Below, in pieces: positions 12,690 through 21,463 of a DNA stretch of 64,000 nucleotides. Position 1 is the stretch's first letter; the number at the start of each line of letters is the position of its first letter. The stretch comes from an uncultured Bacteroidales bacterium (lineage in GTDB: Bacteria > Bacteroidota > Bacteroidia > Bacteroidales > UBA11471), in the NCBI GenBank assembly GCA_947593515.1, contig CANQDQ010000007.1, forward strand, positions 14,484 through 78,483. Direction: 5' to 3'. A program made the position numbers and the translations under genes. Under the pieces are notes generated by a model. That model was not told where the DNA came from and ran no database searches. It worked only from the letters and a program-made list of their open reading frames with translations.

Positions 12690-12750
12690 TCCGGCGCGCC
12701 GAAACCGCATAACACGCGGGGCGGGAAATTTCCCGCCCCGCTGTTTTTTT
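12670..12750 (+). repeat. direct repeat DR1, copy A (3' end of the TlpA-like gene + spacer + terminator)
   Basis: Recurs at 17247-17326. The first 63 nt differ only at 12703 (a vs g) and 12730 (t vs c). The remainder is a diverged but still self-complementary hairpin plus a T-run. Confidence 0.9.
12716..12750 (+). terminator. rho-independent terminator
   Basis: Perfect hairpin GCGGGGCGGGAAATTTCCCGCCCCGC followed by TGTTTTTTT. Confidence 0.85.
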
Positions 12751-12831
12751 ATCCCCTCACCCTCAATATTAGGGTAATCTATAAAAATGTAAAAAATAAT
12801 AATTATTCTTTGCCAGCAATATATAAAATAT

Positions 12832-12839
12832 TATCTTTG
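12832..12839 (+). promoter_or_regulatory. -7 promoter box TATCTTTG for the islet operon
   Basis: Exact TAnnTTTG in a very AT-rich leader, 57 nt before the ACP ATG. Confidence 0.5.
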
Positions 12840-12895: not shown

Positions 12896-13123
12896 ATGGA
12901 TATCCACAAATTCATCAAACAATTAGCAGAACAATTCGACGATACGGATCCGTCGGAAATAAAACCGGACACAAAGTTTCAGGAACTTGAAGATTGGAGT
13001 TCCCTAACGGCAATGGGCATCATCGCCTTTGTCAAAACCATCTACGGAAAAGAAATTACAGGACTCGAGATTCGCTCATGCAATACAGTAGCAGATTTGT
13101 TCCGTATAGTTTCCAATAAATGA
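12896..13123 (+). CDS. orphan acyl/peptidyl carrier protein
   Basis: 75 aa from MDIHKFIKQLAEQFDD. The putative phosphopantetheine site is LEDWSSLTAMGIIAFV (WDSL-type carrier proteins of polysaccharide loci). The stop overlaps the next gene's start (ATGA). Confidence 0.75.
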   Translation: MDIHKFIKQLAEQFDDTDPSEIKPDTKFQELEDWSSLTAMGIIAFVKTIYGKEITGLEIRSCNTVADLFRIVSNK

Positions 13124-13870
13124 ACGAAGATATTTACAATCCCTTTACGCTCAAAGGGAGGAGAGTACTCGTTACCGGCGCATCATCAGGTATCGGACAG
13201 GGAATTGCCATTGCCTGCTCACAAGCCGGAGCAAGCGTAATTCTCAATGGACGAAATGAAACGCGCCTTGCCGAAACGATCGCTCTGATGAAAGAGGGCG
13301 AACATCGTAATTGTAGCCGCCGATTTGACAGACGCCCTGTCGGTAAAAGATGCCGTATCAATGCTACCCAATCTCGACGGTATCGTACATTGTGCCGGCA
13401 TCGGACAGCGCATTCCATGCCGTGAATTGAGAGAAGACGACATCGATGAGGTCATGAATACCAATTTCAAAGCCCCTGTCATGCTTCAAGCCGAGATTCT
13501 CAGACAAAAGAAAATGAATCGGGAAGGGTCCATCGTATTCATTGCTTCCATTGCCGCCGAATCCCCCTCCATGGGAAATGCCGTATACAGTGCCTCGAAA
13601 GGGGCTATCATCTCGTATGCAAACTGTCTCGGGGTAGAATTGGCGCCACGCCACATTCGGGTAAACTGCATAAGTCCGGCAATGGTTCGTACCGGACTGA
13701 TATTCAAAGGAGCCGTAACAGAAGAAGCCTTGAAAGCAGACGAGGCACGATACCCGCTGAAACGATACGGCACTCCTAAGGATATTGCCTATTTGACTGT
13801 CTATATGTTGTCGGAAGCGTCGGCATGGATGACCGGAAGCAACGTAAAAATAACGGGGGGGGGCAAATAG
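13120..13870 (+). pseudogene. SDR-family 3-oxoacyl-ACP reductase-like gene interrupted by a 1-nt frameshift near 13309
   Basis: Frame 1 reads VLVTGASSGIGQGIA...MKEGEHR, then nonsense to a stop at 13425. The frame open from 13292 continues IVAADLTDALSV...NAVYSASKGA... to 13870. Dropping one A in cgtAAtt restores a 249-aa SDR with TGxxxGIG and YxxxK intact. Confidence 0.8.
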
Positions 13871-13881
13871 CCTAATAAACA

Positions 13882-14880
13882 ATGGCTTATATTAAAGGAA
13901 TAAGTTACTGGCTTCCTGAAAAAATCGAATCCGTCTCAAAACTTGTTGAGGAATTTCCTGAATGGGACGCAGAGAAAATAATACGGAAAGTTGGCGTGTC
14001 ATCACGCCATATTGCCGGCAAAAATGAAACGGCGGGCGACCTCGCTGAAAAAGCGGCACGAAAACTATTCGCCGAATATGCTATTTCACCCCGTGAAATA
14101 GATTTCGTGATGCTTTGCACCCAAAGTCCGGACTATTTTTTACCCTCGACCGCCTGCCTGCTTCAACACAGGTTGGGCATACCGACCACAGCCGGCGCAT
14201 TCGACTACGACCTCGGCTGTTCGGGGTGCATTTACGGGTTAGCGCTCGCCAAAGGGCTGATTTCGAGCGGAACAGCCAACAACGTATTGCTACTTACCGC
14301 AGAAACATACAGCAAATATCTTCATCATTCGGATAAGAGCAACCGTTCCATATTCGGCGATGGGGCTGCTGCCTGCTTAGTCTCTGCGGAGGGTGAGGCG
14401 GAAATCGGCAATTTCGTGTTAGGTACTGACGGCAAAGGGGCAGAGTATCTTATTGTCCGCTCAGGGGCTGCGCGCATGAGGGAAAAAACAGGGTATGCAA
14501 CGACCGACGAAGAAGGGCATACAAAACATGACGATTATCTCTATATGAACGGGGGAGCTATCTTCAATTTCACCCTCGATGCCATTCCGAAAATGAAGCA
14601 GCAAGTGCTACAAAAAAATTGTATGGAAGCAAATGAGATAGATTTATACGTATTTCACCAAGCCAACAAATTTATGCTCGATACCCTCCGCAAAGTGTGT
14701 GTCATCGACAAAGACCGATTTTACGTAGATCTTTCCACAACGGGAAATACGGTATCGTCCTCCGTATTTATCGCCTTGAAAGAGTGTATGGACACAAAAC
14801 GCATTCAGAAAGGTATGAATGTCATGATAGCGGGATTCGGTGTAGGGCTGAGTTGGGGCGGAACTATTCTAAAATTCTAA
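13882..14880 (+). CDS. 3-oxoacyl-ACP synthase III family (KAS III / FabH-like)
   Basis: 332 aa with a Cys-His-Asn triad in context: DLGCSGCIYGL, FHQANKFML, GNTVSSS. Confidence 0.85.
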   Translation: MAYIKGISYWLPEKIESVSKLVEEFPEWDAEKIIRKVGVSSRHIAGKNETAGDLAEKAARKLFAEYAISPREIDFVMLCTQSPDYFLPSTACLLQHRLGIPTTAGAFDYDLGCSGCIYGLALAKGLISSGTANNVLLLTAETYSKYLHHSDKSNRSIFGDGAAACLVSAEGEAEIGNFVLGTDGKGAEYLIVRSGAARMREKTGYATTDEEGHTKHDDYLYMNGGAIFNFTLDAIPKMKQQVLQKNCMEANEIDLYVFHQANKFMLDTLRKVCVIDKDRFYVDLSTTGNTVSSSVFIALKECMDTKRIQKGMNVMIAGFGVGLSWGGTILKF

Positions 14881-14884
14881 ACCT

Positions 14885-16309
14885 ATGTTATTTAATTCAC
14901 TTGAATTTCTACTGTTTTTCCCCATTGTTTGCATCATTTACTTTGGGATTCGTTCCGATCGGTGGAGAAATATTTTCCTCCTCGCGGCAAGTTACTACTT
15001 TTATATGTGCTGGGAGCCCGTCTATGCCTTGCTGCTATTGGCAAGCACGGTCATCACTTACACCGCAGCAATAGGCATTGACCGTTGGCGAAAGTATGCA
15101 CATACCTTTCTCATCATTTCCGCAGTTGCCAATCTATCTATTCTTTTTTTCTTCAAGTATTTCAATTGGGCGGCAGAGAATCTTTCCGAACTCATGGCAT
15201 TATTCGGAGTGGTTATGAACGTACCTGAATTCAATGTGCTTCTGCCCGTAGGAATATCATTTTACACGTTTCAAGCATTGGGATATTCCATCGATGTCTA
15301 TCGGGGCACGACTGCGGTAGAGAAAGACTTTCCGACCTATGCGCTTTTTGTCTCGTTCTTTCCCCAGTTGGTGGCGGGTCCTATCGAACGCTCCACCAGC
15401 CTGCTCCCGCAATCTCGGGAACACCACCGTTTCGACGGCGACCGCGCTATTACAGGTATTCACCTGATGCTTTGGGGCTTCTTTCTAAAATTGGTAGTGG
15501 CAGACAACTGCGCTCTTGTCATAAATACAATCCATGACGGTCTCGAATCGGCAACTCCAGCAGATATGTTTCTCGCAGCCTTTCTCTTCTGCTTCCAATT
15601 ATATGGCGATTTCGCAGGCTATTCTTATATTGCTATCGGAGCATCTCGGGTAATGGGCTTTCATTTGATGGACAACTTTCTACGCCCTTATTTCTTTTCC
15701 ACCTCGGTGCAGGAATTTTGGAAAAGGAATCATATTTCACTGACTACATGGTTTATGGATTATATCTATTATCCGCTTGTCGGCAGCAGTACAAGCCTTG
15801 CCCGATGGTGTTTTTGTATTTTTTTCACCTTTTTTCTCTCCGGATTTTGGCATGGTGCCAATTGGACTTATGTAGTCTGTTTCAGCATCTTCGGTATCTA
15901 TCTCGTAATCTGTACTCTCAAAGCACGCGCCCAAAAACGTTTTGAAAAGCGCTACGGTCTCCGCAACAAAGCGTGGTGGATATGGACAAACCGCGTAATA
16001 ACGTTCCTGTTGGTCATGTTAGCTCTCGTATTCTTCCGTGCCGACAACATCAATGATGGTTTCCATATCATAAAAGGCATCTTTACATATTTCTCCGATA
16101 TAACATTACCGTCTATCCTCCCCAAGCGTGTAATAGCAAGTGTCGGACTGCTGTTTTGCATCGAATATTTAGTGGAATACGGCAAAGCCCAATCATTTGC
16201 TGCACGTCATTTCCTGCCTGCCTATATATGTTCAAGCCTGCTGCTTCTGCTCCTTATTGCTTTTATCGGCAATTTCAGCGGCGGACAGTTCATCTATTTT
16301 CAATTCTAA
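14885..16309 (+). CDS. MBOAT-family membrane O-acyltransferase (AlgI/DltB-like)
   Basis: 474-aa polytopic protein. It starts MLFNSLEFLLFFP, has FWKRNHISLTTWFMDYIYYPL, and carries the conserved His in GFWHGANW. Confidence 0.85.
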   Translation: MLFNSLEFLLFFPIVCIIYFGIRSDRWRNIFLLAASYYFYMCWEPVYALLLLASTVITYTAAIGIDRWRKYAHTFLIISAVANLSILFFFKYFNWAAENLSELMALFGVVMNVPEFNVLLPVGISFYTFQALGYSIDVYRGTTAVEKDFPTYALFVSFFPQLVAGPIERSTSLLPQSREHHRFDGDRAITGIHLMLWGFFLKLVVADNCALVINTIHDGLESATPADMFLAAFLFCFQLYGDFAGYSYIAIGASRVMGFHLMDNFLRPYFFSTSVQEFWKRNHISLTTWFMDYIYYPLVGSSTSLARWCFCIFFTFFLSGFWHGANWTYVVCFSIFGIYLVICTLKARAQKRFEKRYGLRNKAWWIWTNRVITFLLVMLALVFFRADNINDGFHIIKGIFTYFSDITLPSILPKRVIASVGLLFCIEYLVEYGKAQSFAARHFLPAYICSSLLLLLLIAFIGNFSGGQFIYFQF

Positions 16310-16333
16310 TTCTGATAAATTATATTCCGAAAA

Positions 16334-17266
16334 ATGAAACATTTTCTGATATATATTGCAGCTGTGCTGCTCTTTGTTATCCCGTTCCTGTGTGTCGGAG
16401 AATGGCTTGTTCGACAAGTACCGAATGCATATCGCTACAAAGAAGAATGGATGGAAGCCCATCATAACGAAGTGAATACTCTTATCTTAGGAAATTCACA
16501 CTCATACGCTGCGGTCAAACCCGACATGATGGATAAGGATACATTCGGCGTAACATTCAATCTCGCTAATTTCTGGCAAACACTCGACATGGATTATTTC
16601 CTGTTGCAAAAATTCGATTGTCCCCAATTAAAAACGCTGCTTATCCCGATATCTTATCCGACTTTTTTCTTCGAAAATATGGGAGTTTCCCCAAAAAGAT
16701 TGATTTACTATAAATTGTATATGAACTATCCCGCCAAACCATTTTACAGCAATTTTGAATTTTTCGACCTGCAAACTTTTGGCACGAAAGTTCGTGCTTT
16801 CTTCTTTCCGCCCGAAGACGTAGGATACGACAAATACGGGTGGACAACATCTTACAAGTTGAAATATAAAGATCCGTTACTCATGCTTAACGGAGATGAG
16901 GCACGTACTCACACACGTAAGAAATGGAAAGAAGCGGTGGAAATCTCCGAAAAAAATTACGCCATTCTGCAACACATTGCCGACGACTGCAAACAACGAG
17001 AAATAAAACTCGTGCTTTTTACGACACCCGCATGGTATTCCTACCGCAATCTTATCGACAGCCGCCAATTTGCAAGAATGCACGAACTTATCACACGGTT
17101 TCTGCAACAAAACGAGGGGACAATGTATTTTGATTATTTGGCCGATTCCCGATTTACAGACGAAGACTTTTGCAACAGTAATCATCTATCGGACATCGGA
17201 GCAGAAAAATTCACAAAAATTCTCTGTAATGACATAGAGGAACAAACCGACGCCCTCGCCCAATAA
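16334..17266 (+). CDS. membrane-anchored DltD/AlgJ-like (SGNH-like) partner protein
   Basis: 310 aa with an N-terminal TM anchor. LILGNSHSY resembles SGNH/DltD block I and NSNHLSDIGAEKF resembles block V. It lies directly after the MBOAT gene. Its last 6 codons and stop lie inside DR1 copy B. Assignment is tentative. Confidence 0.5.
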   Translation: MKHFLIYIAAVLLFVIPFLCVGEWLVRQVPNAYRYKEEWMEAHHNEVNTLILGNSHSYAAVKPDMMDKDTFGVTFNLANFWQTLDMDYFLLQKFDCPQLKTLLIPISYPTFFFENMGVSPKRLIYYKLYMNYPAKPFYSNFEFFDLQTFGTKVRAFFFPPEDVGYDKYGWTTSYKLKYKDPLLMLNGDEARTHTRKKWKEAVEISEKNYAILQHIADDCKQREIKLVLFTTPAWYSYRNLIDSRQFARMHELITRFLQQNEGTMYFDYLADSRFTDEDFCNSNHLSDIGAEKFTKILCNDIEEQTDALAQ

Positions 17267-17326
17267 TCCGGCGCGCCGAGACCGCATAACACGCGGGGCG
17301 GGAAATCTCCTGCCCGCGTGTTTTTT
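17247..17326 (+). repeat. direct repeat DR1, copy B
   Basis: See 12670-12750. It supplies the codons DALAQ* to the upstream ORF and a terminator hairpin. Confidence 0.9.
17290..17326. terminator. bidirectional terminator shared by the islet operon and the convergent ATPase gene
   Basis: Hairpin CACGCGGGGCGGGA/TCCTGCCCGCGTG followed by TTTTTT. The ATPase stop codon is about 15 nt further on, on the opposite strand. Confidence 0.7.
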
Positions 17327-17341
17327 ACCTCGATACGCGGC

Positions 17342-18688
17342 TTACTTCAATCCCGACAAATCCACCTTATAATAAGACGGCGCGGCTTGATTTTTTTCGA
17401 GAAACATCACCATATAAATCGGGGCATACACGATTTTACCCGCCACGCGCAGGTTGTCGCTGTTGAAAACAATTGCCTCCGGCAGGTCGTATTCTTCGCA
17501 CGCCATGATGTTCGACAAGGCGCGATGGCTCTCGTAGTCCTTGCCCGATTTCACTTCCAGAGGCAGCACCGCACCGCCGAGTTCAACGACAAAATCGACC
17601 TCCCCGCGTTTTTTGTTGTTATAGTAGTAAGGCTCCAACCCGTGCGCCACCAACTCCTGCGCCACTGCATTCTCGTATATTGCGCCGTAATTTATATTCT
17701 TATCGCCCTTGATGATACGCAGTTGAATGCCTTCGGCATATTGTGCCGCCAGCAATCCGACATCGTTCTGAAAAAGTTTGAACAGATTTCGTGAACGGGC
17801 AAGCAGCAAAGGCATCTTCGGTTCCTCCACGTTGTACACCGGCAATGCCACGCCGGCATTTTTCAGCCAAACGAAACCGGTTTCGCAGCGGTCGAATTTC
17901 GCATTTTCATTCAACCGTTTCAAAATGAAGCGTTTATTTTTCGCATTGAGTTCCGGCGGAATAAGTTCGAATATCTCTTCGAGATAGAGTTTGTCTTTCA
18001 AATCATATTGGGCAATATCGCGCTTATACAGCCGGATAATATCCTGCTGTATCGTCATGACTTCCTGCAAATTGTTGTTTTCCATATACTTGCTCACCAC
18101 CGCAGGCATACCGCCCACCACCAGATAGAGGCGGAACAGTTCCATGATTTTCCGATGGACGAACGCATCGACCGGCGTGCGATGCTCCCACGCCGAACGC
18201 AACGCGGCGACGACCTGTCCGTCGATGCCAACACAAGTAATAAACTCCTCGAAATCGAGCGGATACATCTCCTTGATGCCCATATACCCCACCGGCTCGG
18301 AACGCAGGTCGCGCAACTCCACCCCCAACAGCGAACCGCTCAAAATGTATCGGTAAGAGCCTTCATCGACCAAAAATTTAATGGCGGTTACTATATCCGG
18401 ACACCGCTGCACCTCGTCGAAAAAAATCAATGTCCGACCTTTGACAAGCGGCGTCGCCGTCATTGCCGAAATGCGGAACAGAATCTCGGCGGCACTCTTT
18501 GCACCCTTGAATATTTCCACCGCATCGGGATTCTCCACAAAATTGATTTCGATAAAACTTTTGAACGTCTTGCCAAATTCCCGAATCGAAAATGTCTTGC
18601 CGGTTTGTCGGGCGCCGGTAACCAACAAGGCACTGCGCGTGTGCGCGTAATAATTCCGGAGATAGGCATCTATTTTTCTTCGAATCAT
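17342..18688 (-). CDS. AAA+ ATPase with C-terminal DUF4143 / PD-(D/E)xK-like domain (COG1373 type), copy 1
   Basis: 448 aa. Walker A GARQTGKT, Walker B LIFFDEVQ, and C-terminal GEVDFVV...LPLEVKSGK (D...ExK nuclease-like motif). Confidence 0.8.
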   Translation of the reverse strand: MIRRKIDAYLRNYYAHTRSALLVTGARQTGKTFSIREFGKTFKSFIEINFVENPDAVEIFKGAKSAAEILFRISAMTATPLVKGRTLIFFDEVQRCPDIVTAIKFLVDEGSYRYILSGSLLGVELRDLRSEPVGYMGIKEMYPLDFEEFITCVGIDGQVVAALRSAWEHRTPVDAFVHRKIMELFRLYLVVGGMPAVVSKYMENNNLQEVMTIQQDIIRLYKRDIAQYDLKDKLYLEEIFELIPPELNAKNKRFILKRLNENAKFDRCETGFVWLKNAGVALPVYNVEEPKMPLLLARSRNLFKLFQNDVGLLAAQYAEGIQLRIIKGDKNINYGAIYENAVAQELVAHGLEPYYYNNKKRGEVDFVVELGGAVLPLEVKSGKDYESHRALSNIMACEEYDLPEAIVFNSDNLRVAGKIVYAPIYMVMFLEKNQAAPSYYKVDLSGLK

Positions 18689-18955: not shown

Positions 18956-21463
18956 CTATCGGACAATTATCATCGTCTTGCCGTTCACGATGTAGGCACC
19001 GTTCTGTAACGTTTTGAGGTCGGCGGCATCATCGGTTTCGAGTACCAACACGCCTTGCAGATTATATACCGTTATGTGTCCGTCGGTTTGCTGCGTTTCC
19101 GTTATCGATGACGGCTCGTCGGGTTCTACGGGCTCCGGCTCTTTTATCGTGTAGGTATAGGTGAGTTCGGGGTTGCTATGTCCCGTTTTCGGGTCGGCGG
19201 CAAAGACGTCGTCGCCGAATGTTCCTGCCGGAATTACGAGCAGATAAGTTCCTGCTTCGGTCAGGCTGTATTCGGCAGCCTTTGTCTGTTCGTCGCCTTG
19301 CAGGGCAATGATGAAACTTTTTCCGTCTTCACTCGCTGTAATGCGGGCGGGATAGTATGCCGAGCTGTCTGCTTTCATCACCGTTGCCGAGTCGCCCACG
19401 AGGGCGGGACGCTCGTCGAAAGCGAGCGTAAAGGTGGAGAGGGCGGTTATCGTTTCGTCGTTTTCAGCAGGAGTTATCGTCGGTGCGGCTTCGAAGTCGT
19501 ATGCCACGATCGGCAATATCGTTCCGAACTCCTTCCACCCTTCGGCGGCTTTATACTTTTCTACCGATTCGGCAGGTACATACAACGTACAGATGGAACA
19601 ATCCGTGTCCGAAAAAGTTATTCCGCTTAAATTCGGCGGTATCGGATTATATATGGTTATTTTTGTCAAACTCGAACAATACGCAAAAATCTGCATACCG
19701 ATGTTTTGAATGTTACTCCTTATCGTTACCTCATTCAACTTGGAGCAATTGTAAAAAGCGCCTTGCTCAATAGTCGTAACACTCTCCGGTATCGTTATCG
19801 AAGTCAAGCTCTCGCAGCGGATAAAAGCACTGATCCCGATAGTCGTAACACGATTGCCCATCGTTACAGAAGCCATGTTGCCGCAGTCGTAAAAAGCCTT
19901 GTTGCCAATAATTAAAACATTATCGGGAATTATTATCGACTGCAGACTCGCGCAATAATAAAAAGCCCCGTCTCCGATAATGGTAACGCTATTGGGTATG
20001 GTTGCTGAAATCAAGCCATTACAACCATAAAAGGCGTATGAGCCGATAACCGTAACGCCTTCCGGTATCGTTACCGATTCCAGACCCGAACACCGTTGAA
20101 AAGCTCTATCACCGATAATAGTTACCCCTTCGGGTATGGTATAATCTGCTACTCCACATTTCGGTGCAAAGGCTATAAACAAAGTGTCATTTACGATAAG
20201 GCTGCAATAATCGTCCGTTGCAAACTTTCCCTTGAATTTTTCAATATTCGTACAGCCACGAAATGCCCCAGAAGCAATAGAGACAACACTCTCCGGTATC
20301 GTTACCGACGTTAAGCCGACACAATCCTCAAAAGCAGCCTCGCCGATAGTGGTAACACTCTCCGGTATTGTTACCGATGTTAACTCTGAGCAACCGGAAA
20401 AAGCACTGCTGCCAATAACTTTAACTTCGTCCGGTATGGTATATTGAGTCAATCCACTCGGTGCAAACGCTTTCAAGGTATCATCTACGATAAGACAGCA
20501 ATGATCGTTCGATGCCAATGGTCCATCAAATTCTTCCAAACTTTCACAACCAAGAAAAACTCCGTCGCCGATAGTCATACTGCTGCTGCCTATCGTTACA
20601 TTTGTCAAACTCCCACAATCCAAAAAAACTTCGTCGCCGATAGCGGTAACGCCGTTACCTATCATTACCGACGTTAACACTCTGCAAGAGTGAAATGCCC
20701 GATTGCCGATAGTGGTAACACTGTTGGGTATCGTTACCGATGTTAAATTCCTGCAATAGTCAAAAGCCTTATTACCGATAGCAGTAACACCCTCGTTTAT
20801 TTTTACCTCTGCTAAACGCGAACAACTCGAAAAAGCAGCATCTCCTATCAAAACGACGTTTGCCGGTATCGTTACCGATTCCAAAGCAGAGCAACCGGAA
20901 AAAGATCCAGTGCCGATAACCTTAATATTTTCAGGTATAATATAGTCATTCAGCCCGTTTGGCGCAAAGGCTTTCAACGTATCCTTTATGATAAGACAGC
21001 GCCCTTCTTCCGCAGCAAATTTTCCTTCAAAATATACCAACGACACACAACCTGAAAAAGCCCTGTCGCCGATAGTGGTAACACCGTCGGGTATCGTTAT
21101 CGACGTCAAACGGCTGCAATTGGCAAAAGCTCTTTCGCCAATAGTGGTAACGCTTTCGGGTATTGTTACCGATGTCAGGTATGTGCAACCCTCAAAAGCA
21201 TAGTCGCCGATAGAAGCAATACCATCACTTACCGTTACCGAATTAATCGAAGTGCGATAATTATACCATGGGGTCTTCCTTTCAGCATAATTTCTCATGG
21301 CTCCCGTACCGGAGATTTCGAGGACACCGGTTTCGGTATCGAGTTTCCATGTAACATTGGCACTGCAATAGCCGCTGTAGATTTCGGCTTGCACCGTTGC
21401 CGCTCCGCCCCACAAGAGCGCGGACAGCAACATAAAAAACAGTGTGCGTTTCATTTTTGTCAT
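18956..21463 (-). CDS. BspA-type leucine-rich-repeat surface protein with T9SS C-terminal sorting domain
   Basis: 835 aa with a signal peptide. About 25 copies of the ~23-aa unit xSVTIPxSVTxIGxxAFxxCxxL. C-terminal ITVYNLQGVLVLETDDAADLKTLQNGAYIVNGKTMIIVR is a typical T9SS CTD. Confidence 0.85.
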   Translation of the reverse strand: MTKMKRTLFFMLLSALLWGGAATVQAEIYSGYCSANVTWKLDTETGVLEISGTGAMRNYAERKTPWYNYRTSINSVTVSDGIASIGDYAFEGCTYLTSVTIPESVTTIGERAFANCSRLTSITIPDGVTTIGDRAFSGCVSLVYFEGKFAAEEGRCLIIKDTLKAFAPNGLNDYIIPENIKVIGTGSFSGCSALESVTIPANVVLIGDAAFSSCSRLAEVKINEGVTAIGNKAFDYCRNLTSVTIPNSVTTIGNRAFHSCRVLTSVMIGNGVTAIGDEVFLDCGSLTNVTIGSSSMTIGDGVFLGCESLEEFDGPLASNDHCCLIVDDTLKAFAPSGLTQYTIPDEVKVIGSSAFSGCSELTSVTIPESVTTIGEAAFEDCVGLTSVTIPESVVSIASGAFRGCTNIEKFKGKFATDDYCSLIVNDTLFIAFAPKCGVADYTIPEGVTIIGDRAFQRCSGLESVTIPEGVTVIGSYAFYGCNGLISATIPNSVTIIGDGAFYYCASLQSIIIPDNVLIIGNKAFYDCGNMASVTMGNRVTTIGISAFIRCESLTSITIPESVTTIEQGAFYNCSKLNEVTIRSNIQNIGMQIFAYCSSLTKITIYNPIPPNLSGITFSDTDCSICTLYVPAESVEKYKAAEGWKEFGTILPIVAYDFEAAPTITPAENDETITALSTFTLAFDERPALVGDSATVMKADSSAYYPARITASEDGKSFIIALQGDEQTKAAEYSLTEAGTYLLVIPAGTFGDDVFAADPKTGHSNPELTYTYTIKEPEPVEPDEPSSITETQQTDGHITVYNLQGVLVLETDDAADLKTLQNGAYIVNGKTMIIVR

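Follow-up and report, generated by a model that had tools for sequence, protein, structure and literature searches.

How a membrane-bound O-acyltransferase (MBOAT) comes to lie directly behind genes for an acyl carrier protein (ACP) and a condensing enzyme, and where it would then obtain its acyl donor, is the question raised by a short run of genes from an uncultured gut Bacteroidales bacterium (lineage UBA11471; GenBank assembly GCA_947593515.1). The stretch analyzed, referred to below as the window, is 64,000 nt of contig CANQDQ010000007.1 (positions 14,484 to 78,483 of the forward strand). At 12896-17266 (+) it carries five co-directional genes, recognized from the open reading frame (ORF) listing and profile searches, that specify an ACP, a short-chain dehydrogenase/reductase (SDR), a β-ketoacyl-ACP synthase III (KAS III), an MBOAT and a protein of SGNH fold. 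The intergenic gaps are, from 5' to 3', -4, 11, 4 and 24 nt. The genes, and a motif at the end of the fourth, are as follows:

12896..13123, +, dedicated 75-aa acyl carrier protein (PF00550), with a predicted phosphopantetheine site at Ser36 in DWSSL
13120..13870, +, interrupted gene for an SDR-family (FabG-like) ketoreductase (adh_short and adh_short_C2 matches), with a +1 frameshift at about 13309
13882..14880, +, KAS III, a FabH-family condensing enzyme (PF08545 and PF08541; C113, H259, N289)
14885..16309, +, MBOAT acyltransferase of 474 aa (PF03062, 3.8e-17), with H283 and the catalytic H323 in GFWHGANW
16289..16306, +, FIYFQF (aa 469-474), the C-terminal FxYxxF acyl-shuttle motif of the MBOAT, in which Tyr471 is the predicted acyl-Tyr intermediate
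16334..17266, +, membrane-anchored SGNH-fold (DltD/PatB-like) predicted transferase of 310 aa, assigned from the AlphaFold2 (AF2) fold and the family alignment, with Ser55 in GNSH and His284 in NSNHL

In our judgment the five genes probably make up a cassette that is complete in itself and O-acylates a surface molecule by an MBOAT–SGNH shuttle, the donor of which would be built on the dedicated carrier and not drawn from acetyl-CoA. The evidence includes the linkage of the genes across Bacteroidales, and changes to the catalytic core of the MBOAT that go with it.

Linkage of the carrier and condensing genes to one MBOAT clade

An alignment of the fifth protein was scanned against a genome collection and metagenomes, which gave 76 loci, all from Bacteroidales metagenome-assembled genomes (MAGs) or gut and rumen metagenomes. 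The window proteins were then run against the 76 loci by tblastn, and the upstream neighbors were searched with Pfam. Most of the loci have an MBOAT gene immediately 5' of the SGNH gene, and these pairs fall into two kinds. Around 45 have an MBOAT that is at most 43% identical to that of the window; tblastn found the ACP/SDR/KAS III trio near none of them, and their neighbors are unrelated (RsgA, peptidases, an aminotransferase, a cobalamin adenosyltransferase and others). Where the MBOAT is at least 64% identical (about 62–63% in L100-101), a KAS III gene lies directly upstream in all eight independent lineages inspected, and a 75-aa ACP is present in all seven whose contig extends far enough. 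These eight, all metagenomic, were chosen for their long contigs from more than 120 MBOAT clusters that a database search returned at 61–79% identity. The clade is therefore a common one; NCBI names its members only "MBOAT family protein". The lineages carry the following genes:

L001, MBOAT 99% identical, full cassette, same synteny as the window
L024/L025, MBOAT 79%, all five genes, other flanks (toxin-antitoxin, nadB)
L037, MBOAT 65%, ACP–KAS III–MBOAT–SGNH without the SDR, on a short contig
L038, MBOAT 64%, KAS III–MBOAT–SGNH, the KAS III gene being cut by the contig end
L092-94, MBOAT about 66%, all five genes, Prevotella MAG
L095-96, MBOAT about 64%, all five genes, in a polysaccharide locus
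L097-99, MBOAT about 65%, all five genes, in a polysaccharide locus
L100-101, MBOAT about 62–63%, four genes without the SDR, Paludibacteraceae MAG, between housekeeping genes

The flanks of these loci are completely different from one another, and since the identical gene order recurs in independent lineages the arrangement is not due to chance. Co-occurrence of ACP, KAS III, SDR and MBOAT had been proposed as a check when the genes were first interpreted, and the linkage of ACP, KAS III, MBOAT and SGNH genes was found in every lineage inspected and in none of the roughly 45 more distant loci.

Two MAGs close to the source genome of the window hold both a cassette and a stand-alone MBOAT–SGNH pair (L001 with L019, and L002 with L023), a coexistence that speaks for separate functions of the two sorts of pair. 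The stand-alone pairs in question, L019:6559-8972 and L023:6559-8930, show 42% and 28% identity. Similar pairs are spread through the Bacteroidales, in housekeeping surroundings that are unrelated to one another, and all of their MBOATs end in FIYFQF; O-acetylation of peptidoglycan or of lipopolysaccharide (LPS) are possibilities for them.

The MBOAT

Both histidines of the MBOAT, H283 and H323, are invariant, and across 38 MBOATs H323 is matched without exception, as are F469, I470, Y471, F472 and F474 of the terminal motif. The AF2 model, built from an alignment of cassette-clade sequences only, has a predicted local distance difference test (pLDDT) value of 80.6. Its top structural matches are DltB (6bug/8jem, TM 0.62–0.72), followed by HHAT, PORCN and LPCAT3, and DltB is also the nearest solved relative by sequence (8jem, 7.8e-22). 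The assignment of an MBOAT with its histidine in GFWHGANW, made earlier from the letters of the sequence, agrees with all of this. As an equivalog, the protein is not DltB: although the DltB model TIGR04091 is the top NCBIfam match, it scores 141.6 bits against a cut-off of 375.

Anderson et al. describe two arrangements of the acyl shuttle. In the Dlt pathway, DltB passes D-Ala from the carrier DltC to the tyrosine in the FxYxxF motif of a microprotein, DltX, while in all the other bacterial MBOAT/SGNH pathways the FxYxxF motif is fused C-terminally to the MBOAT on extra helices, the donor is an acyl-CoA and there is no carrier protein (PMC12148441). The window MBOAT has extra C-terminal helices relative to DltB, and a 474-aa protein that ends in FIYFQF is of the PatA/AlgI type of architecture, not the DltB/DltX type. 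With the MBOAT histidine, the FxYxxF motif and an adjacent SGNH partner, the cassette has the structural parts that define the MBOAT–SGNH acyl-shuttle class. The original prediction had seen in it the carrier, MBOAT and anchor logic of Dlt and Alg systems; those parts are present, but the shuttle is fused to the MBOAT and is not that of a DltB with a DltX.

Cassette-clade MBOATs differ from 21 stand-alone Bacteroidales MBOATs at several otherwise conserved positions in the catalytic core (R263D, an inserted F270, W282N immediately before H283, R291M, G299V and R302S). M291 and S302 show no variation among 30 members of the cassette clade, in which D263 and N282 are at least 90% conserved. Position 282 aligns with Trp288 of DltB, which belongs to an aromatic cluster around the active-site histidines (PMC11035591). 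Judged from the alignments, the substitutions are consistent with a different acyl group or a different handling of the donor.

The clade-specific positions lie at nt ~15671-15790, and three arginines are lost among them. A link between these losses and an acyl-CoA pocket was considered, but no firm tie could be made, as the arginine residues are not named in the published account (PMC12148441) and DltB itself retains an Arg equivalent to R291.

The SGNH partner

No above-threshold Pfam match was obtained for the fifth protein. Its AF2 model is of high quality (pLDDT 91.7; predicted template modeling score, pTM, 0.89) and consists of an N-terminal helix (residues 2-27) followed by an α/β domain. 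Foldseek searches of the PDB returned GDSL/SGNH hydrolases, DltD (7dxm, 3bma, 6o93, 6pfx) and PatB (7tjb), all at probability 1.00, the DltD structures matching at a TMq of about 0.42–0.46. Structure prediction, which had been suggested for this protein, thus gave the SGNH/DltD/PatB fold and not that of an unrelated family, in keeping with the earlier description of a membrane-anchored, SGNH/DltD-like product. Weak Pfam matches were found among the 24 members of its family, to DUF1574 in 22, to DltD (PF04914) in two, and also to GDSL families; the window protein has no PF04914 match. G53, S55 (GxSH) and H284 are invariant in the 24 homologues. The residue three positions before His284 is an Asp in most relatives, including the L001 protein, which is 91% identical to that of the window, but it is an Asn (Asn281) in the window and in L024.

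Between lineages, the cassette proteins differ greatly in their degree of conservation. The MBOATs are 64–79% identical, the ACPs 57–84% and the KAS III proteins 55–80%, compared with only 19–31% for the SGNH partners. The divergent partners are still recognizable (hhalign probability 93–97%), and their Ser and His are invariant. Such a pattern suggests a conserved donor side and a variable SGNH side that would read the acceptor.

Two further loci contain relatives of this protein. At L021:2706-3327, a fragment of an MBOAT (aa 81-195, 51%) runs into a fragment of an SGNH protein (aa 194-297, 50%), and the fused pieces look like the remnant of a deletion within a related MBOAT–SGNH pair. At L028:10001-12423, a distant SGNH homologue occurs in a reversed order (SGNH, a 143-aa ORF, MBOAT) among genes of the lipooligosaccharide (LOS) core type, the neighbors being Glyco_transf_8/90, Lip_A_acyltrans and an MsbA-like ABC transporter.

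Genes of the proposed donor side

The ACP matches PF00550 at 21.6 bits, just over the cut-off of 20.8, and its matches to NCBIfam ACP models are weak. The motif W-[S/G]-S36-L is invariant across 10 orthologues, so that the carrier identified in the first interpretation, an orphan with its Ser site in DWSSL, does possess an invariant serine at the predicted attachment site. The KAS III protein exceeds the cut-off of NF006829 (269 bits against 249) and falls below that of the housekeeping fabH model TIGR00747 (241 against 292). C113 (GCSG), H259 (HQANK) and N289 (GNT) are invariant in 13 sequences, so the FabH-like enzyme with an intact Cys-His-Asn triad was correctly recognized. Retention of the His and Asn favors a decarboxylating condensing enzyme over a mere acyltransferase. 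The nearest solved structure is a structural-genomics entry (3gwa/3gwe, 337 bits), housekeeping FabH proteins scoring about 130–190 bits; the subfamily thus already has a structure, with no assigned function. A role as a DarB/StlD-type condensing enzyme of dialkylresorcinol or flexirubin synthesis was considered and rejected (NF053539, 53.6 against 550 bits; NF005293, 65.8 against 450 bits).

The SDR gene of the window is interrupted. Alignment with the 98–99%-identical locus L001 places an extra A at ~13309, where the window reads CGTAATTG and L001 reads CGT-ATTG, and the resulting frameshift divides the gene into ORFs 13120-13425 and 13325-13870. The SDR motifs TGASSGIG, NGRN and S...Y156xxxK160 (YSASK) are kept across the two halves and conserved in orthologues. 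An SDR with TGxxxGIG and YxxxK, as originally described, is therefore encoded, but not as the intact ORF of about 250 aa expected of a FabG-like enzyme. From the alignment, the extra base could be a pseudogene lesion or an error of metagenome assembly. The orthologues in L001, L024, L092, L095 and L097 are intact (246–257 aa), and SDR identity is 65–75% in most cassettes. The intact L024 protein lies below every FabG equivalog cut-off, the best match being NF005559 (183.6 against 215 bits).

Four-gene cassettes that naturally lack the ketoreductase (ACP–KAS III–MBOAT–SGNH) are found at L037:540-4277, at L100:6768-10341 and in L101; two different KAS III subtypes are represented among the three. 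As the SDR is absent from L037 and L100, the ketoreductase is outside the conserved core, and the system of the window could remain active despite its frameshift. The proposal that a KAS III and ketoreductase pair takes the place of DltA accordingly holds for the conserved KAS III, whereas the SDR is optional.

These observations bear on what the KAS III does. It could act mainly as an acyl-CoA:ACP transacylase, a loader like DltA, in which case a simple short acyl group and not a 3-oxo- or 3-hydroxyacyl group would be carried, with the same export logic. FabH enzymes have acyl-CoA:ACP transacylase activity as a side reaction, and the cassettes without a ketoreductase, the broken SDR of the window and the lack of a malonyl transferase in the cassette would all suit such a loader. 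Yet none of the 13 KAS III sequences compared has lost the His and Asn on which malonyl decarboxylation depends, and most cassettes retain a well-conserved SDR. Acetyl alone, moreover, could come straight from acetyl-CoA, as in the stand-alone pairs. We regard this variant as very unlikely.

The same trio in capsule loci

More than 8000 homologues of the window KAS III were recovered, the best 120 at 70–99% identity. The contexts examined are Bacteroidales capsule loci, in which a 75-aa ACP, an SDR of 245–250 aa and one or two KAS III proteins are encoded next to PglD_N/Hexapep or FrhB/Fer4/Hexapep proteins, with Bac_transf, DegT, AT3, glycosyltransferase, flippase and pyruvyl transferase genes in the wider surroundings. 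This trio has the same gene order as that of the cassette and is closely related to it (ACP 56–65%, SDR 64–67% and KAS III 71–74% identity). It differs in that it stands beside LbH, FrhB/Fer4/Hexapep or AT3 proteins, has no MBOAT–SGNH pair and often includes a second KAS III paralogue. No published characterization of this capsule-locus module was found in the literature searched. Since the trio is common in capsule loci beside other acyltransferases, its product normally serves glycan decoration, and what is new here is not the trio but its pairing with an MBOAT and an SGNH protein. The cassette is a capsule-locus trio recombined with an MBOAT–SGNH pair.

Tandem KAS III paralogues were seen at L030:2469-5473 and L033:7998-10999, with ~56% and ~72% identity to the window enzyme. 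They are followed by ~505-aa proteins without a Pfam match, and 5' of these modules are PglD_N/Hexapep proteins or 598-aa FrhB_FdhB_C+Fer4+Hexapep proteins.

One unit or two modules side by side

The main rival to a cassette that feeds its own MBOAT is the adjacency of two modules that work independently; a KAS III that only loads the carrier, an acceptor other than a polysaccharide and decay of the window copy are variations on the proposal more than competitors to it. In the rival, acetyl-CoA would be the donor with which the MBOAT–SGNH pair O-acetylates a polymer, as do PatA/PatB and AlgI/AlgJ, and the trio would supply some other, unlinked transferase, such as an LbH enzyme that N-acylates an amino sugar. 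Several observations weigh against a carrier-fed MBOAT, and some of them favor this rival directly. The fused FxYxxF architecture goes with acetyl-CoA in the single case tested, that of PatA, and the non-Dlt MBOAT/SGNH pathways are stated to have no carrier protein (PMC12148441). The trio is far commoner without an MBOAT, so other enzymes can use its product, and it is widespread beside PglD_N/Hexapep and AT3 proteins. The residues of DltB helix HC to which DltC docks (M302, V305, I306, M309, K312 and R317) are not conserved in the window MBOAT. The segment aligned to this helix is 7 residues shorter, and the equivalents of K312 and R317 vary. The ACP, for its part, has a Gly at the position of DltC Glu40, and the attempt to infer ACP docking from the DltB–DltC interface led nowhere. 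Neither FabD nor a phosphopantetheinyl transferase is encoded within the cassette. A few members of the SGNH family also occur without an adjoining MBOAT (L014/L026, L016 and L039), the linkage was followed in only eight lineages of a large clade, and the window copy itself, with its frameshifted SDR and an Asn for the block-V Asp of the SGNH protein, may be decaying.

Against independent modules stands the adjacency itself, found in 8/8 lineages with otherwise unrelated flanks. In the window and L001, in L024 and in L100, moreover, the cassette is alone among housekeeping genes, with no other acyltransferase there for the ACP product. The trio is also strictly absent from the MBOAT clades at 43% identity or below, which are likewise from Bacteroidales, and the cassette MBOATs have clade-specific changes in their catalytic core. 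On balance, we find two unconnected modules improbable.

A proposed pathway and its acceptor

The gene content, catalytic residues, folds and linkage described above would fit the following route, each chemical step of which we infer. The 75-aa ACP would be phosphopantetheinylated at Ser36 by a host transferase and malonylated by the housekeeping FabD, neither enzyme being encoded in the cassette. Given the intact Cys113-His259-Asn289, the KAS III should be competent in decarboxylative condensation, and it would condense a short acyl-CoA primer with malonyl-ACP to a 3-oxoacyl-ACP, acetyl-CoA giving acetoacetyl. An intact SDR would reduce this to the 3-hydroxyacyl-ACP. Where the SDR is frameshifted, as in the window, or absent, as in two relatives, the 3-oxo donor may be used as it is, or reduction may fall to a housekeeping enzyme. 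If PatA and DltB/DltX are a guide, the MBOAT would take the thioester via a cytoplasmic tunnel and, with His323, acylate its own Tyr471 in FIYFQF at the outer face. The SGNH protein would then accept the acyl group on Ser55, with His284 as the base, and pass it to a hydroxyl of a surface polysaccharide.

Passage of the acyl group from ACP to MBOAT, its identity and the acceptor that receives it are thus predictions. For the acyl group, the simplest guess would be C4 (3-hydroxybutyryl or acetoacetyl), but this is a tentative one, clearly likelier to fail than to hold. The 3-hydroxybutanoate of Bacteroides fragilis PS A2 was considered as a known product and rejected, because it is ether-linked to a heptose and not esterified (PMC12648304).

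As to the acceptor, the cassettes of L092, L095 and L097 lie amid genes for GT2/GT4 glycosyltransferases, a Polysacc_synt flippase, Wzz, Wzy_C, ABC2 transporters and AT3 proteins, and their presence within polysaccharide loci indicates a surface polysaccharide. The cassettes of the window, L024 and L100 are solitary, their units containing neither a further acyltransferase gene nor a polysaccharide gene, and the acceptor would therefore be made elsewhere. Decoration of a polymer made elsewhere, as first proposed, is thus a good description of these three.

The cassettes outside polysaccharide loci also leave room for another envelope molecule as the acceptor: the LPS or LOS core, lipid A, a glycolipid, peptidoglycan or a lipoprotein glycan. 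The distant SGNH homologue of L028, among LOS-core-type genes, would fit such a target, and peptidoglycan and teichoic acid are substrates of known MBOAT–SGNH pairs (PMC12148441). On the other side, 3/8 lineages have the cassette in loci with flippase, Wzy, Wzz and glycosyltransferase genes, and the extreme divergence of the SGNH proteins fits hypervariable capsule or O-antigen acceptors. We give a non-polysaccharide acceptor a slim chance.

Taken at its widest, the proposal is of a widespread Bacteroidales MBOAT–SGNH family that uses an acyl-ACP donor made by KAS III and places 3-oxo- or 3-hydroxy short-chain esters on capsule or O-antigen, and for this whole statement we see the chances as evenly balanced. 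If true, it would be the first carrier-protein-dependent MBOAT pathway outside the Gram-positive Dlt system, and gut and rumen bacteria would have a class of surface-glycan modification that had not been recognized before. A new O-acyl decoration on the capsules of these abundant bacteria would bear on phage receptors, immune recognition and glycan degradability. Should the link between trio and MBOAT be functional, the donor repertoire of bacterial MBOATs would grow past acetyl and D-alanyl, and the four or five genes would be a compact test bed for the choice that an MBOAT makes between thioesters of CoA and of ACP. The conserved donor side, together with a hypervariable SGNH protein, also suggests how acceptor specificity evolves.

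Boundaries, genomic setting and state of the window copy

The limits of the cassette were taken from the following features:

12716..12741, +, strong terminator-like hairpin of 11 pairs (GC in 10, with a T-run after it) that closes the upstream gene for a TlpA-like thioredoxin; 5' boundary of the cassette
12809..12839, +, candidate Bacteroidetes-type promoter, read from the sequence (TTTG at 12809-12812, a 19-nt spacer and TAtcTTTG at 12832-12839)
17296..17315, +, terminator-like hairpin with a T-run after it, 30 nt past the last stop codon; 3' boundary of the cassette

The promoter candidate resembles the Bacteroidetes consensus (-33 TTTG and -7 TAnnTTTG), and it overlaps a sigma-70-like match at 12810-12837. 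The gene 3' of the cassette is convergent. The unit lying between the two hairpins, with its short gaps, supports the earlier reading of a single operon; of the five products then expected, four are intact and the fifth, the SDR, is split.

The cassette is inserted between the TlpA-like gene and a gene for an AAA_14/DUF4143 ATPase. Going by the sizes and translations of its ORFs, the remainder of the window holds housekeeping genes (nuo, lpxK, thiL, arg genes, rpoBC and tuf), and no polysaccharide locus was found in its 64 kb. GC content is 44.8% in the cassette compared with 51.9% for the window and 53–55% for the flanks, the ACP and SGNH genes being lowest at 40% and 41%, which suggests horizontal acquisition into a housekeeping region. 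Downstream of the cassette, the ATPase gene (17342-18688, -) is followed by a gene (18956-21463, -) for an 835-aa secreted protein with repeated leucine-rich units of ~23 residues, BspA-like as judged by eye; the region of these two genes is likewise low in GC.

The low GC content, suggestive of a horizontally acquired accessory element, is one of several signs that the window copy could be a decaying, non-functional remnant. The +1 frameshift in the SDR is another, as are Asn281 in place of the block-V Asp, while the 91%-identical L001 protein has the Asp, and the existence of a truncated MBOAT/SGNH remnant at L021. Yet none of the other four ORFs is shortened or lacks a catalytic residue, and the L024 cassette, intact in other respects, likewise has an Asn at the block-V position. 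Since there are natural cassettes with no ketoreductase, the system could still function after losing the SDR, and one differing base in a metagenome assembly may have arisen as an error. A dead copy is in our view unlikely.

Comparison with known systems

No published description of an MBOAT cassette fed by an ACP and KAS III was found in the full-text literature, the journal coverage of which is incomplete; this is in line with the original prediction, the author of which knew of no characterized MBOAT system fed this way, and the five genes were not found to be an already characterized pathway.

Carrier-protein-dependent acylations of glycans and lipid A are known from RfbK-O of Vibrio cholerae O1 (tetronate on perosamine) and from AcpXL/LpxXL of Rhizobium. 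Like the cassette, these systems have a dedicated ACP and acyl-building enzymes encoded beside envelope-glycan genes. They differ in that soluble or LpxL-type transferases pass on the acyl group at the cytoplasmic face, and no MBOAT–SGNH shuttle takes it across the membrane.

The Dlt system shares with the cassette a small dedicated carrier encoded beside an MBOAT and a membrane-anchored SGNH-fold transferase, and the logic of an FxYxxF acyl-Tyr shuttle. Unlike Dlt, the cassette has no adenylating enzyme but a KAS III, with or without the SDR; profile searches found no AMP-binding domain (DltA) in any ORF of the cassette or of its homologues. The predicted cargo is an oxo- or hydroxyacyl group, whereas that of Dlt is D-alanine. 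There is also no DltX microprotein, the shuttle being fused to the MBOAT, and gaps of -4 to 24 nt leave no room for one. Finally, Dlt belongs to Firmicutes and acts on teichoic acids, while the host of the cassette is a Gram-negative member of the Bacteroidales without teichoic acids. Membership of the Dlt pathway was therefore rejected, there being no DltA and no DltX and the DltB model scoring far under its cut-off.

PatA/PatB, AlgI/AlgJ/AlgX and WssH/WssI are closer in architecture. They have an MBOAT of about 475 aa with the catalytic His and extra helices ending in FxYxxF, and a separate SGNH partner with an N-terminal membrane helix, PatB (7tjb) being among the fold matches of the fifth protein. 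These systems, however, use acetyl-CoA and have neither a carrier protein nor acyl-building enzymes. A carrier protein and a KAS III directly upstream of a fused-shuttle MBOAT make a combination that contradicts the published generalization (PMC12148441), and this combination of fused shuttle, dedicated carrier and acyl-building enzyme recurs in many genomes of Prevotella, Paludibacteraceae and other Bacteroidales.

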